Positions 1,289 to 36,980 of a DNA stretch of 43,895 bases are shown one piece after another. The notes beneath the pieces were generated by a model that was not told the DNA's origin, searched no databases, and saw only the letters and a program-made list of their open reading frames with translations. Source of the stretch: a virus. The DNA lies in the UHGV virus genome UHGV-0356621; one strand, 5' to 3'. Position 1 is the first letter of the stretch; the number at the start of each line of letters is the position of its first letter. A program made the translations under genes and the position numbers.

Positions 1289-2449
1289 TCAGAATCCTAA
1301 TGCAAACCAGCGGAAACCGTCTGCTGGAGTTGCTGTTGATACCCATGAGAAGAAGAAATTGACATCAGAGTTAGAAATGGCACCAACCTGAGAAAAAACA
1401 TCAATACCGGCATTTCCTGACAAATTGGACGGGGTTGCCATTGCCATCAAGGAGAAATTCGGGAACGGTGTTGGGAAAATAACGTTTTGCACCCCTTCTG
1501 GTATAGACTTTAAAACAGCGCCCCATTGAATTATTAACCCACCAGAAACGTCTGGAATGCGGACAAAATCATTCGCTGCAAAATTTCTCTTTGGAAGAAA
1601 TGATTTCAGGCCGCTGGCATCTACCATTTTTTTAGCCGTACCCGACTGAATATCAGCGGCGGTAGCGATCGGCCCCAATCCCAAACCTGAAAGTACTCCC
1701 GCTGCATCACTCCTGCCGAGTATTGTTCTTGCGAATGCTGTCAGATCGGTTATTGCTACAGTATCTTCGCCAGTGAAGTAAGGTAATTTATTTGCTGAAC
1801 TTGCCAGGGCTGCAATGGCAGTTAAAGTTGCATCCAGTGGTTGTTTCCCATTCAGCAATTCAGTTATGCCAAGGTAGTTCACGATATCAGCAATTTTTTC
1901 TGCCGCCACGACTGTGCGCCCAACGGTTGTAATTCCAGAAAGTCTGGCTGTGTTGCTGTCGTCAAAAAAAGGAAAACTGTTCCCAATGCCATTCAGCGTT
2001 GCGAGCTGCTTTAAACCAAGGTATGTGAGAATGTCAGCAATAGTATTTTTCCCGATAATGTCACGGCCAACAGAAGTTAAATCAGTCTGCGCTGCTGTAT
2101 CATTTCCAGTGAAATATGGGAGTTTATTTGCACCTGTTGCGAGCCCAGCTAATGCCGTCAGCGTGGCGTCAAGCGCCTGGAAATCCTTACCGAACGCGGC
2201 GGACATTTTGGTGATAAACCCGTTCAGGTCACCATCATCAAGCACGTCCAGCCCGCTTTTGTTAGCGGTGTACTGCGCCAACGCTGCCGCTATAAAGCTG
2301 GCCTGTCGAATGGCTTTGTTTACCTGCGCACTGGATGCCTTTCCTGCCATGAATCCAGAGAGTAGAGCCGGAAGTGTTTCCCAGTCAGCCTGGGCTGTCA
2401 CGTTAGCGTTAGGATCAATCGCAAACGCTTTAAAGTTATTTGTTGCCAT
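1289..2449 (-). CDS. Tail fibre protein, distal part, with P2 gpH-like tandem repeat
   Basis: Two copies of LDATLTA(L/I)A.LA...NKLPYFTG.DT...TDLT..R.I.G...A..L.YLGL, matching the KDATLTALAGLATAADRFPYFTGND segment of P2 gpH as I recall it; ATG verified with AAGGAA RBS. Confidence 0.75.
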   Translation of the reverse strand: MATNNFKAFAIDPNANVTAQADWETLPALLSGFMAGKASSAQVNKAIRQASFIAAALAQYTANKSGLDVLDDGDLNGFITKMSAAFGKDFQALDATLTALAGLATGANKLPYFTGNDTAAQTDLTSVGRDIIGKNTIADILTYLGLKQLATLNGIGNSFPFFDDSNTARLSGITTVGRTVVAAEKIADIVNYLGITELLNGKQPLDATLTAIAALASSANKLPYFTGEDTVAITDLTAFARTILGRSDAAGVLSGLGLGPIATAADIQSGTAKKMVDASGLKSFLPKRNFAANDFVRIPDVSGGLIIQWGAVLKSIPEGVQNVIFPTPFPNFSLMAMATPSNLSGNAGIDVFSQVGAISNSDVNFFFSWVSTATPADGFRWFALGF

Positions 2450-26199: not shown

Positions 26200-26274
26200 T
26201 GGCGGGACAGGAAGGATTCGAACCTTCGACCATTCGGTTAACAGCCGAACGCACAACCGCTGTGCTTCTGACCC
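26200..26274 (-). tRNA. tRNA-like gene, putative tRNA-Asn (anticodon GUU), 75 nt with encoded CCA
   Basis: Minus-strand cloverleaf by eye: acceptor GGGTCAG/CTGTCCC (one T:T mismatch), D stem GCAC/GTGC, anticodon stem TTCGG/CCGAA with loop CTGTTAA, T arm GAAGG-TTCGAAT-CCTTC, discriminator G, CCA. Position 8 is A rather than the usual U. Confidence 0.55.
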
Positions 26275-34116: not shown

Positions 34117-34350
34117 TTATGCCGCGGTATTTCGCGGCGAGGCAAAAACCAGGCTCTCTTTGAGCACCGGATCCTGGCGGTGAAATTTTTTTGTGGCATC
34201 TTCGATAGCCGATGCCATTTCTGGTGATGCGCGACGATTTCCGTAAGCGATCTGGTCCAGATAACCTGGCGTTGTGTTTGCCAGTTTTGCGAGCTGCGCC
34301 CATTCGTCTGTAGTGGCGCCCTTACGCCAGCGATGCAGTTCAGTACTCAT
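34117..34350 (-). CDS. cro: Cro-like repressor (YdaS/Cro-type HTH)
   Basis: 77-aa HTH protein divergent from cI across an operator region and followed by cII. Confidence 0.6.
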   Translation of the reverse strand: MSTELHRWRKGATTDEWAQLAKLANTTPGYLDQIAYGNRRASPEMASAIEDATKKFHRQDPVLKESLVFASPRNTAA

Positions 34351-34466: not shown

Positions 34467-35144
34467 ATGGAAAATAAAGAAATCAGAAAAGCCAACCTGG
34501 AAGCGCTGTATGAGAAGCGCCAGCACGAGTCTGGAATGACAAAGGCGCAGTTCGCCGAGCTCATCGAGACAAGTCCGGCTGCGCTTAGCCAGCTGCTGGG
34601 ACCAAACCCTCATCGCAATATCGGCGATAAGATGGCTCGCAAAATTGAAAGTGCGCTTGATCTGCCTTTTGGTTGGATGGATGTTTTACACACCAGTGAA
34701 GAACCTTCGAACGTTGCATTTCGAGGACTGAACGAGACAAAAGGAAGTTATCCTGTAATCAGCTGGGTAAGCGCGGGGCAATGGATGGAAGCTGTAGAAC
34801 CTTATCACCGAAGAGCGATAGATCGCTGGTATGACACGACTGTTGACTGCTCAGAAGATTCATTCTGGCTGGACGTTAAAGGGGATTCTATGACCTCCCC
34901 GGCTGGACTGAGCATACCCGAGGGAGCAGCGATACTTGTTGATCCTGAAGTCGAGCCGCGCAACGGAAAGCTGGTTGTCGCGAAGCTAGAAGGCGATAAC
35001 GAAGCGACCTTTAAGAAGCTTGTAATCGATGCCGGCAGACGCTTCCTAAAGCCCCTTAACCCCGCATATCCAATGCTAGAAATTAATGGAAACTGCAAAA
35101 TCATCGGCGTTGTGGTTGATGCCAAAATACTAAACATCCCATAA
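34467..35144 (+). CDS. cI: CI repressor (N-terminal HTH, C-terminal S24 LexA-like autopeptidase domain)
   Basis: HTH segment MTKAQFAELIETSPAALSQL; C-terminal GDSMTSP (Ser nucleophile) and later Lys; ATG at 34467. Confidence 0.85.
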   Translation: MENKEIRKANLEALYEKRQHESGMTKAQFAELIETSPAALSQLLGPNPHRNIGDKMARKIESALDLPFGWMDVLHTSEEPSNVAFRGLNETKGSYPVISWVSAGQWMEAVEPYHRRAIDRWYDTTVDCSEDSFWLDVKGDSMTSPAGLSIPEGAAILVDPEVEPRNGKLVVAKLEGDNEATFKKLVIDAGRRFLKPLNPAYPMLEINGNCKIIGVVVDAKILNIP

Positions 35145-35163
35145 CCTCACGCAAAACCCCTCA

Positions 35164-35189
35164 AGCCCGCCATCGCGCGGGCTTTTTTA
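35164..35189 (+). terminator. Rho-independent terminator after cI
   Basis: GCCCGC-CATCGC-GCGGGC followed by TTTTTT. Confidence 0.7.
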
Positions 35190-35227
35190 CGTCCCGAATT
35201 CCTTCGCTGTAAATTTTTAATCGCTTA

Positions 35228-35302
35228 TTAATCAATACGCTAAATAAAACCATTCAACAATTTAGCATTTTGCTATTGCGCATAATTTAGCATCACGCTA
35301 AA
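35228..35302. promoter_or_regulatory. OL-like operator cluster / candidate leftward early promoter
   Basis: Sites 35261-35277 TTTAGCATTTTGCTATT and 35286-35302 TTTAGCATCACGCTAAA (perfect), plus a weaker site ending GCTAAA at 35244; same consensus as the OR sites. Confidence 0.55.
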
Positions 35303-35862
35303 TTTACCCCATCGAAACGAAACATCGACAGCTGAGCGAAGTTAGCCAGCGGCGGACAGCAAGTCGCCTGCTTTTTTAACAAATCAGACTGAGTGACAGG
35401 CAAGCCGTAGCTCTCCTGGCAAAAAGAAATGGCACCCGATGGGATCGAGGTAAGCACTGAGTCCGTATGCGTACGGTAGGTGTAGAGGACCACGCTGCGA
35501 TGAGCTGATAAGTCACTCAATTTGAAGCGCTCCGATGATGGGGCGCTGATTCAACTTAGAGGAGTGATTCCAATGAAGAACTAAAGCGGACAGACCGCAG
35601 CCTAAAGGCAATGCAGCAGTAATGATGCCGCCCTGAGTCGCCGAATGGCGAGCCTGTGTAGTGATGGGTCAAGGTTCTTATATCAAAACAAGCTCCGGTA
35701 AAGCAGCGCGAACGCCAGACGCGCACCGGTTATGAGCGGCGATGAGCGACAAGGTCTCAAGGGCATGTGCGCGGCCACTGCGAGAGTGTGGCGAAGTTTA
35801 CCAGCAGCTCTTTGCGAGGGGCTGACGGCAAATCTACTCCACTTATTTAAAAGAGACGGTAT

Positions 35863-36036
35863 ATGGATAATCAGGATAATGAGTTAAGAAAGGTTGTTCA
35901 GGAACTTGCTGATGAAGAAGGCATCAGCTTTTCCGATGCCCTAGATGTTTCGATTAAAGCGCTGCGTTATGAGGTAGAGCGCAGAAAATCGTTTAACGGT
36001 GAAGCTGCTTGTGATGGCTCTGCAATTACTTCTTAG
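35863..36036 (+). CDS. Small acidic hypothetical protein (57 aa)
   Basis: ORF MDNQDNELRKVVQELADEEGISFSDALDVSIKALRYEVERRKSF...; first ORF downstream of the OL-like operators; 3' end overlaps the convergent gene by 11 bp. Below the track cutoff. Confidence 0.35.
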   Translation: MDNQDNELRKVVQELADEEGISFSDALDVSIKALRYEVERRKSFNGEAACDGSAITS

Positions 36037-36304
36037 CCAAGTACCAAGAGGTGTCTGCGGCTTCGGAAACCAGTACGTAATAGCTTTGCTTTACACTACT
36101 AGCTATACCTCTGACTTCCTCTCTAACGTTATATGCAGTTGATGTTTTTACGGTTGTATATTCAGCTGTTGGGAGGTTAAACCAAGTGCCATTACCATCC
36201 TGTATCTCACGCGAATAACCCTTTGCTTTCATCTTTTCATGAAGATTTTCATAGTCTTCAGAATCAGCGCCGCGCAACTCAACTCGAACAATATATCTTG
36301 CCAT
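36026..36304 (-). CDS. Hypothetical protein (92 aa), AT-rich gene antisense to the early-left operon
   Basis: ORF MARYIVRVELRGADSEDYENLHEKMKAKGY... with AGGAAT RBS; DNA is visibly AT-rich; the longer track ORF (to 36595) is an upstream extension. Confidence 0.5.
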   Translation of the reverse strand: MARYIVRVELRGADSEDYENLHEKMKAKGYSREIQDGNGTWFNLPTAEYTTVKTSTAYNVREEVRGIASSVKQSYYVLVSEAADTSWYLAKK

Positions 36305-36530
36305 AAGAAGATTCCTATATTGACTGTGGAATGAGCAACATATCAGTTTCCTTTGACTGTGGAAAGCAAAGGGACACGGGCCGGGCGTGGATAAAAATCC
36401 CGGCAATAACTGGAATGTTTTGTAGTGCAGTGAATTGCAGCTGCATCGACGGCAACCGGAAGATAAGCACCCGGCGCTGCACCACAAAGCATTTCTCCCG
36501 CATCCGCGGGTAACGACAGAGGGTAAAAGG

Positions 36531-36827
36531 ATGATCGACGACATCAAGCGCATCGACTCAATGATAAATGTGCTTCGAAATATGAAACAGGACATTAAGC
36601 GCCAGCAGAAACTAAGTGAAATAAACAGCTTAGACCTTACGCCAAAGCAAGCTCAAAAGCGCAATGCCGATGCTGGCTGGATTGCGATGGAACAGATTAA
36701 GCGCCGGCATGAGCTGCACGCTCTGTCAGTTGAGCTTGGGTTCGCTGAACGCCGGGAAAGTTATGCTCCATTTGAATTAACTGACGGGTGGCACCGATTC
36801 AACCACAAGCCGCGCGAACCTCAATAG
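36531..36827 (+). CDS. Hypothetical early protein
   Basis: 98 aa from the ATG at 36531 after an AAAAGG RBS. Confidence 0.4.
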   Translation: MIDDIKRIDSMINVLRNMKQDIKRQQKLSEINSLDLTPKQAQKRNADAGWIAMEQIKRRHELHALSVELGFAERRESYAPFELTDGWHRFNHKPREPQ

Positions 36828-36980
36828 CCGCCTAGCCAGCGGCTTTTTCATACCTGGAGTCATTTACGAGTGGCTTAGTTATGACAACCGGCGGCCATCC
36901 ATCGCCCATTGAAACACATAAAAGTGCGTTGAAGTCTTGTATTAACCGTTCCGTTCGCCGCGATAAGGCTAAGAGGATTT

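Follow-up and report, generated by a model that had tools for sequence, protein, structure and literature searches.

C4 of phages P1 and P7, CI of P4, and CA of N15 are structured RNAs that are released from the untranslated leaders of early operons and control the operon, and these C4-type RNAs of around 70 to 90 nucleotides (nt) pair with repeated target sites in the same transcript. Phage operon transcripts also contain start-stop mini-ORFs (ORF, open reading frame) such as the bar minigenes of lambda and bacterial examples of this kind, which consist of a Shine-Dalgarno (SD) sequence, a start codon, and 1 to 3 codons and for which the peptide sequence is irrelevant. A further type of leader signal is the put RNA, with put positions at the early-left promoter pL known for phage HK022 (PMC9378689). 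Here, we analyzed a region of UHGV virus genome UHGV-0356621 (43,895 nt; this whole stretch is called the window below) in which a lambdoid prophage of the phi80/HK639 type has the leader of its early-left (pL) operon, followed by the first accessory slot of that operon. The region contains what we call element A, a conserved structured RNA family of ten helices that is unannotated in Rfam and in the genome records examined.

The folded part of element A spans around 210 nt, or around 220 nt (35573-35793) when a mini-ORF at its 5' edge is included. Its components in the window are the following:

35559..35584, plus strand: SD GAGGAG (35559-64) and mini-ORF AUG AAG AAC UAA (35573-84)
35585..35793, plus strand: folded part of element A with helices P1-P10 (covariance model R1, covariation)
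35586-89/95-98, 35600-02/07-09, and 35613-17/27-31, plus strand: P1, P2, and P3
35632-34/35672-74 and 35638-41/48-51, plus strand: junction helix and P4, then the variable P5 domain
35695-98/35726-29, 35706-10/20-24, and 35739-40/46-47, plus strand: P6, P7, and P8
35756-59/66-69 and 35774-78/88-92, plus strand: P9 and P10

The helices were derived by hand. The alignment of copies shows two length variants and clear compensatory changes. RNAalifold on plain MAFFT alignments had recovered only fragments because the two length variants were misaligned, and it was replaced by the hand-derived structure together with a covariance model, R1, that comprises 32 diverse sequences, 229 positions, and 39 pairs. 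R1 finds exactly one copy in the window (35568-35795, 255.5 bits) and recovers full-length divergent copies in phages mEp237 and phiKO2, for which BLAST gave fragments of 36-39 nt. Over the divergent-type loci plus 12 earlier sources, all 71 matches score 67-255 bits. As a specificity control, we used 753 kb of DNA from unrelated genomes across unrelated phyla that carry chance 16-mer matches to element A; the best R1 score there was 19.8 bits.

Covariation analysis, named as a check by a first-pass annotation of the window made from its letters and ORFs, gave a strong compensatory signal in element A. In a structure-free MAFFT alignment, 95.3% of cells hold standard pairs compared to 23-39% with slid partners, and 15 pairs show compensatory double changes as opposed to 7.0 +/- 1.6 in shuffles (0 of 500). 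The model-guided alignment of 57 distinct sequences was fitted to the structure and so leans towards it, but the structure-free test agrees with its results: 97.5% of cells pair (31-39% in slid controls), and double changes are found in 26 of the 39 pairs. Each position of P3 and P7 features 4-6 standard pair types, with pairing in 97.2% and 100% of cells, respectively. An unbiased stack scan yielded the junction helix, in which CCY (35632-34) pairs with RGG (35672-74) and switches between C-G and U-A (66 and 23 sequences); together with P4 and P5 it makes up a three-way junction, of which it is the closing helix. Within the element, loops are where insertions and deletions occur. Single-sequence folding was uninformative for element A (z = +0.94). 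The suggestion of the first-pass annotation that this untranslated stretch could encode a structured RNA is thus borne out by covariation, though not for the two hairpins that it had pointed to: both exist (35351-35368 plus a U-tract, and 35526-35547), but the conserved RNA is the segment 35573-35793.

At its 5' edge, element A is joined to a ribosome site of conserved design, with an SD directly 5' of P1, a start codon 6-9 nt further on, zero to three sense codons, and a stop codon. The start codon keeps a fixed distance of 12-13 nt before P1, and the architecture is conserved while the peptide varies (MKH, MKQ, MHQ, MV, VH, or a bare AUG-stop). By script, 101 of 144 unique contexts were found to have this arrangement; inspection reveals it in most of the other 43 as well, where the start is TTG or the SD is weaker. 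If a gene upstream (e.g., an Rz-type gene) reaches up to the element, the stop codon of that gene replaces the one of the mini-ORF.

SD, mini-ORF, P1, and P2 are all missing from a promoter-proximal subtype of four loci (L272, L279, L291, and L307; L numbers denote loci fetched for comparison), in which element A begins at +1 of a lambda-like pL and uses what we take to be the lambda leader hairpin, UCACC-AGGAC-GGUGA, as its P3. What follows in all four is a nutL of the lambda or phage-21 type and an N gene encoding an arginine-rich motif. Directly after P10, L279 and L307 display a second copy of the same hairpin, and in these two loci (L307, 1945-2190, minus strand; L279, 275-540, plus strand) the element appears, relative to the lambda pL leader, to be inserted between the presumed lambda leader hairpin and boxA. 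The duplication of a 15-nt hairpin, UCACCAGGACGGUGA, at both ends of element A in L307 and L279 resembles a recombination scar or target duplication. Because this adaptor is absent from the promoter-proximal subtype, the ribosome site seems to go with having upstream RNA. Most economically, the site can be read as insulating or shielding the element from RNA upstream of it, from Rho, or from decay that depends on the 5' end, which would be needed only when the element is internal to the transcript.

Element A is present in more than 180 viral contigs and in phages of Escherichia, Klebsiella, Enterobacter, Hafnia, and Providencia. A core 20-mer was found in at least 120 IMG/VR contigs, giving 93 distinct 250-nt versions, and a second pattern scan with a divergent-type anchor added 60 further contigs. 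Among phage records, 35572-35795 matches unannotated DNA of mEp213, Hafnia phage yong1, Stx2c phages, vB_EcoS-733R5, Klebsiella phages RothC and RothD, and Providencia phage PSTCR7lys. The element also occurs in 128 of 5426 complete E. coli genomes (about 2%), where nearly all of the copies listed have no annotated feature and a few are covered by a "hypothetical protein". Each phage record and fetched locus has one copy; two copies were found in 3 of the 128 E. coli genomes and may come from separate prophages. At gathering thresholds, Rfam 15 recognized nothing in the whole window but a tRNA gene in another part of the prophage (26203-26274, minus strand, 63.9 bits). Permissive scanning of 35100-36600 produced four matches at chance level, none of them inside the folded part of element A. 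Literature searches, which did not cover King 2011 (J Bacteriol 193:5784), retrieved no description of the element. The record of RothC (L006) has two antisense genes labelled "hypothetical protein" over element A (1910-2246, minus strand); they are most likely miscalls, since the ORF is not conserved in other copies.

No case of element A lying antisense to the surrounding operon was found among the records and loci examined. The 158 unique upstream contexts include at least 37 after a CI-type repressor (that is, in a pL leader), at least 20 after a Q antiterminator, 13 after a DNA methylase just before the lysis genes, and around 20 after the lysis cassette and before structural genes. In 27 of 106 unique contexts, the SD directly follows an intrinsic terminator; the stems of these terminators vary between phages while the joint of U-tract and SD, UUUUGYCGUUUCUGGAGG, is kept. 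This is the late-leader arrangement seen after Q in RothC and mEp237. In RothC, tRNA genes lie directly 3' of the element. Phage mEp213 (L003) carries element A between two N-like genes of its pL operon (845-1177 and 2330-2602), the second of which belongs to a family with a phage-21-like C-terminus and a different arginine-rich motif (NARNRRRARRQAQRE). In loci of the mEp213 type, P10 occupies the lambda-boxB position before the leader stem of this second N-like gene.

The early-left operon of the window runs along the plus strand, as judged from cI on this strand and a cro-like gene on the minus strand, where cII-like and O/P-like genes are also located. BLAST against phage records showed that no single record spans the whole stretch and that its pieces match different phages. 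Their order is a shared pL leader with a boxA-like site, segment B, element A, an HK639-type hairpin, a two-gene cassette, a junction block, a phi80-type N gene, and a terminator. The parts around element A, up to the cassette, are these:

34117-34350, minus strand: cro-like gene
34467-35144, plus strand: cI gene, S24/HTH (helix-turn-helix) repressor (profile matches)
35163..35184, plus strand: intrinsic terminator closing the cI transcript, an 8-pair hairpin followed by UUUUUA (terminator scan)
35276..35304, plus strand: pL promoter with TTGCGC (35276-81), 17 nt, and TAAATT (35299-35304), within the OL operator region
35304..35354, plus strand: initial transcribed leader, common to phi80, HK639, HK225, KO-TP1, and CobraSix (92-97% identity)
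35351..35380, plus strand: hairpin GGCGGAC-AGCAA-GUCGCC followed by UGCUUUUUUAACAA, terminator-like and boxA-like (terminator scan; boxA annotation of phi80)
35375..35547, plus strand: segment B, conserved and noncoding, from boxA to the hairpin at 35526-35547 (85.5% identity to a 606R2-type leader)
35526-35547, plus strand: hairpin AGCGCUCC-GAUGAU-GGGGCGCU
35797..35835, plus strand: hairpin UUUACC-AG-CAGCUCUUUGCGAGGGGCUG-A-CGGCAAA (97% identity to HK639 over 36 nt; fold z-score -0.7)

We assigned pL by eye against the annotated pL promoters of phi80 and HK639, and its layout matches both (in phi80, a -10 element TTTAAT and then TACTCCATCG), with a start near 35311; a simple consensus promoter scan did not call it. 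Two weak Rfam matches lie close by: one to AgvB in the AT-rich OL region (35244-35288; 18 bits against a gathering score of 56, E 1.9), which we judged to be chance, and one to Trp_leader at 35163..35184 that covers the terminator part alone. From 35311 to 35862, the pL operon has a noncoding leader on the plus strand. The description of the DNA downstream of the leftward promoter as largely ORF-free in the first-pass annotation holds: stops break every frame on both strands between 35300 and 35572, and across 35300-35860 the ORFs reach at most 75 amino acids (aa) on the minus strand, with one of 51 aa on the plus strand. A coding leader was rejected in view of stops in all frames and of substitutions relative to a homologue that lack a 3-base periodicity (11/9/5).

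The leader itself is a mosaic. Over 35304-35388, it matches the phi80 pL leader at 95-97% identity, with the nutL boxA annotated in the phi80 record as part of the match. The hairpin at 35351-35368 is followed by UGCUUUUUUA, which is terminator-like and boxA-like, and the boxA-like UGCUUUUUUAACAA at 35369-35382 is the sequence labelled nutL boxA in phi80; the copy of this site in phage 606R2 reads GCUCUUUAACAA, a perfect boxA. The first 45-50 transcribed bases after pL are near-identical in phages with unrelated operators and repressors, and this near-identity across phages of unrelated immunity hints that the initially transcribed region is functional. The counterpart of segment B in vB_EcoM-606R2 and relatives is the leader downstream of their repressor gene; we claim no structure for segment B because its fold z-score is only -1.4.

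Two pieces, 35303-35354 and 35797-35832, match HK639, and the second of them lies inside the HK639 feature "putL-like antiterminator RNA", with whose 3' end the hairpin at 35797..35835 is shared. HK639 and the lineage of the window thus have the first leader piece and the 3' hairpin in common, and the close relatives L135 and L078 also share the next 440 nt with HK639 at 98%. Between these flanks, HK639 carries a put core of 92 nt, whereas the window has 442 nt comprising the boxA hairpin, segment B, the mini-ORF, and element A. Module swaps at one slot often mark analogous functions in lambdoid phages.

Beyond the cassette, the operon continues with three features:

36380..36530, plus strand: junction block before the first pL gene, common to HK639, phi80, mEp213, HK140, and CUS-3
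36531-36827, plus strand: phi80-type N gene, 98 aa (94 of 98 residues identical to phi80 N)
36826..36844, plus strand: tL1A-like intrinsic terminator (terminator scan; positioned as tL1A in phi80)

The first-pass annotation had seen no arginine-rich N-like protein and had concluded that antitermination may differ here. This needs correction, because an N gene that is 96% identical to phi80 N begins 227 bp beyond 36304 and is followed by a tL1-like terminator (36531-36844), though the protein indeed has no obvious arginine-rich N-terminus. It belongs to phrog_25091 (function unknown) and matched nothing in Pfam, NCBIfam, or PADLOC. Phi80 records name this gene N, and the older one maps a 278-nt nutL signal after pL as well as tL1; the window keeps just the boxA end of this nutL region, with the rest replaced. 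No convincing copy of the phi80 nutL core hairpin was found in the pL leader or elsewhere in the window (a 20-mer gave no match and a 12-mer only chance-level ones), consensus boxA matches elsewhere in the window stayed at chance level, and no nutR is evident between the cro-like and cII-like genes. The DNA of CUS-3 that matches the junction block is annotated as "bsq5 boundary sequence". This block (CCCGGCAATAACTGGAATGTTTTGTAG ... CAAAGCATTTCTCCCGCATC.GCGGGTAACGACAGAGGG) also occurs at L001:2930-3094, L002:2830-2917, and around 2240-2329 of L003, and it precedes the first pL gene irrespective of what that gene is (the phi80-type N here, a membrane protein in HK639).

What might element A do at these sites? 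We tentatively favor, with considerable reserve, a role in cis in which it would act as RNA on its own transcript or on the elongation complex. This preference derives from its position at operon starts, its strict sense orientation, the promoter-proximal subtype, the terminators upstream of it, and the swap with HK639. The element would fold while emerging from the polymerase and would secure expression of the long downstream operon through processivity, protection from Rho, or protection from decay. At internal copies, a ribosome that initiates and terminates at the 5' edge could insulate the fold from upstream RNA and from processes that travel 5' to 3', such as Rho translocation or RNase E scanning, and an element at the very 5' end of the transcript would dispense with this adaptor.

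Several observations weigh against a role in cis. Element A coexists with a nutL and N directly downstream, with N-like genes 100 nt downstream, with Q upstream, and with the phi80-type N in the window, and its slots are classic moron slots too. In the copy of the window, P3 contains a non-standard A.C pair and P9 a non-standard U.U pair. HK022 putL has a clear homologue in the HK639 core, and element A was rejected as a put homologue given that only its flanks match HK639 and that R1 has no match on the put sequences of HK022 or HK639. Since the swap also brings in the boxA site and segment B, and since this lineage has a phi80-type N gene that HK639 lacks, the antitermination function may reside in these, with element A as a passenger. 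A terminator follows P10 within 60 nt in 16 of 125 unique contexts (around 13%), mainly in copies with a UCCGGGAA P10 loop, which fits a discrete stable RNA. Finally, the 3' two-thirds of the element may form a small-RNA gene of their own in L263 (3814-4036, minus strand), where the copy is truncated at its 5' end. This copy begins at the 3' strand of P4 and has a possible promoter upstream (TTGGGT, 18 nt, TATAAG) and a U7 tract after P10.

Several of these points would be expected if element A were instead a trans-acting stable noncoding RNA that is cut from early-left and late transcripts during lytic growth and binds a host or defence component, which we regard as possible but rather unlikely. 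The ribosome at the 5' edge and, in some cases, a terminator hairpin at the 3' end would then stabilize the excised RNA. Such a role would suit a self-contained module with sharp boundaries inside mosaic leaders, its occupation of accessory slots (the pL leader, the gap between Q and the lysis genes beside the tRNA genes of RothC, or the position after the lysis genes), its patchy presence in 128 of 5426 E. coli genomes, and its coexistence with every antitermination type. Some copies are flanked by terminators on both sides, the one in L263 resembles a stand-alone gene, and a fold of ten helices whose loops are highly conserved would suit a binding scaffold. Most copies, however, are without a promoter of their own, and the late-leader terminator that abuts the SD leaves no room for one. 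Copies also sit at operon starts and not across other accessory slots, and no target was found.

A broader idea, which we consider doubtful, is that element A represents a third kind of phage operon-leader signal beside nut and put that needs a ribosome terminating at its 5' edge to fold or act and that would directly reprogram the polymerase or the fate of the whole downstream transcript, or else that it is an RNA that acts as a catalyst or binds ribosomes. In its narrow version, a put-like processive antiterminator that binds RNA polymerase, the role in cis appears less probable again. In favor of this version, the block with element A occupies exactly the slot of the HK639 put core, and the element lies on the sense strand around 260 nt after pL with a tL1-like terminator downstream, or, in four loci, at +1 of pL just like HK022 putL. 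Some phages, phiKO2 among them, have terminators downstream of the element, as does the window beyond its N gene. Yet the element has no similarity to put in sequence or structure, is around three times larger, is present in a single copy per genome, and coexists with N/nut and with Q. As these co-occurring systems already provide processive antitermination, a put-like role would often be redundant.

It is improbable that this leader, with element A in it, serves the phi80-type N or other N-like genes as their nut site or regulatory leader. The 278 nt after pL that were mapped as nutL in phi80, of which the window keeps the boxA end and replaces the rest, would be compatible with this view, as would the P10 of mEp213-type loci at the lambda-boxB position before the N-leader stem. 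Against this, element A is equally common downstream of Q and of lysis genes, at sites that lack an N; four loci have it ahead of a complete lambda-type nutL; and the window encodes an N that is 96% identical to that of phi80 and still offers no convincing phi80 nutL core hairpin.

We give little credence to a riboswitch or attenuator that senses a ligand or other signal, despite the aptamer-like complexity of element A, its conserved unpaired nucleotides, its location in 5' leaders, and the hairpins or terminators after some copies. No conserved alternative pairing with downstream hairpins was detected (a repeat of the P3 strand occurs in 7 of 56 cases as opposed to 2.8 +/- 1.6 and 4.1 +/- 1.8 in two controls), downstream sequences and distances vary widely, and just 13% of copies have a terminator nearby. 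Complementarity between the P10 loop and terminators was also considered and is unsupported across loop subtypes. That the conservation reflects a small protein or a DNA-level site instead of an RNA is barely credible, since the hypothetical minus-strand ORFs annotated across the element in some records such as RothC are not conserved and are split in the window, while stems show compensatory changes, indels fall in loops, and the orientation relative to transcription is constant. Our likelihoods for these readings do not sum to certainty, and a small remaining share is left for explanations that we have not thought of.

Between the leader and the junction block lies a cassette of two genes, with a repeated motif in the gap next to it:

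35863..36036, plus strand: gene of an acidic 57-aa protein, in sense with the pL operon
36026..36304, minus strand: gene of a 92-aa protein, ATG at 36304, antisense to the operon
36320-31 and 36353-64, no strand assigned: TTGACTGTGGAA in two identical copies, 33 bp apart, upstream of the 92-aa gene (read from the sequence)

The first-pass annotation had described an acidic ORF and an AT-rich gene that converge here with an 11-bp overlap and had proposed the antisense gene as a candidate lysogen-expressed exclusion or toxin-like factor. The layout (overlap at 36026-36036) is as it said, and both genes are AT-rich, with a guanine-cytosine (GC) content of 0.425 for the 57-aa gene and 0.416 for the 92-aa gene compared to 0.525 for the window. 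The 57-aa ORF is not a doubtful one; it encodes a conserved small protein with 39 homologue clusters of 65-98% identity and 57-60 aa, bar one each of 65 and 81 aa. Homologues of the 57-aa protein adjoin homologues of the 92-aa protein (adjacent locus tags in Mixta calida, shared contigs), and the 57-aa gene is annotated in E. coli LR-28.

Homologues of the 92-aa protein form 26 clusters from Enterobacterales and Halomonas, with lengths of 91-94 aa in nearly every case, and some close homologues are named ghoS by PGAP. The 92-aa protein matches Pfam GhoS PF11080 (22.7 bits; cutoff 21), phrog_8894 (E 1e-32), and, over its full length, NCBIfam YmfI_phage NF051477 (59.6 bits against a cutoff of 140, E 3e-16). 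Its AlphaFold2 model (pLDDT 94.7) has GhoS 2LLZ as best match in the PDB (Foldseek E 1.1e-4, template-modelling score 0.69), followed by Cas2. The protein is predicted to have a GhoS/Cas2-like ferredoxin fold and appears related to YmfI. The PADLOC defence models matched neither protein. Downstream on the minus strand, no small hydrophobic ORF was found that could encode a GhoT-like partner, and in view of this lack of a GhoT-like membrane toxin we do not consider the cassette to be a GhoST system. GhoS (YjdK), the antitoxin RNase of the type V system GhoST, and Cas2 share the ferredoxin-like fold with the 92-aa protein, but the identity to GhoS is 14%, and the partner is an acidic, soluble protein of 57 aa encoded convergently instead of a co-directional membrane toxin. 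YmfI of the e14 prophage, a prophage early-region protein, is the best named sequence family, though the score is far below its equivalog cutoff.

In E. coli LR-28, the pair lies after cI without element A and without an N-like gene. A Serratia prophage has a convergent overlapping pair of the same layout between Q and holin, with the small gene in sense and the 92-aa gene in antisense; the partner gene there encodes 67 aa and is known as the counterpart by layout, not by homology to the 57-aa protein. In this Serratia liquefaciens prophage (L316, 4001-4473 and 5439-5717), there is also a second 92-aa gene just upstream of Q. From these two placements, the pair seems to move as a unit, and the two genes qualify as a portable convergent accessory module. 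Its low GC content and recurrence between Q and holin agree with the antisense gene being an imported, moron-like accessory gene. The TTGACTGTGGAA pair could provide operator or promoter elements for the antisense 92-aa gene.

An unannotated, strongly covarying RNA of 220 nt that hundreds of phages carry was not to be expected in the early-left and late leaders of lambdoid phages, which are textbook regulatory regions. It is also unusual for a folded RNA to be fused in a fixed manner to a start-stop ribosome site. Should element A control elongation or the fate of the transcript, it would constitute a new mechanism beside N, Q, and put; should it act in trans, it would be a new phage-encoded RNA effector; and if it is a third kind of operon-leader signal, close relatives of the best-studied phages would harbor a new class of functional RNA. 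The element is present in cultured phages (mEp213, mEp237, phiKO2, Hafnia phage yong1, and Klebsiella phage RothC), and the E. coli lysogens ABWA45 and CX05 have identical copies of it. Independent of its function, the covariance model fills an annotation gap and removes spurious "hypothetical protein" calls like those in RothC.

Compared to the described systems, element A shares with the C4-type RNAs the early-operon leader, but we saw no such target sites for it as these RNAs pair with, and it has no Rfam match to C4. Its mini-ORF recalls the bar minigenes but differs from them in being tied, with an unvarying spacing of 12-13 nt, to an RNA of conserved structure and in being dispensable at the 5' end of the transcript. 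The nutL-N systems of lambda and phi80 (GenBank M11919, NC_021190) occupy the same position, and the window does have a boxA-like sequence, a phi80-type N, and a tL1-like terminator; however, the phi80 nutL core hairpin was not convincingly found there, and element A is not a boxA/boxB site. The put RNAs of HK022 and HK639 (King et al. 1996, 2011; Hwang et al. 2022, PMC9378689) are, like element A, cis-encoded structured RNAs on the sense strand just after lambdoid early promoters, but they comprise around 70 nt and two stems, whereas element A combines around 210 nt and ten helices with a ribosome site and is found in late operons as well.

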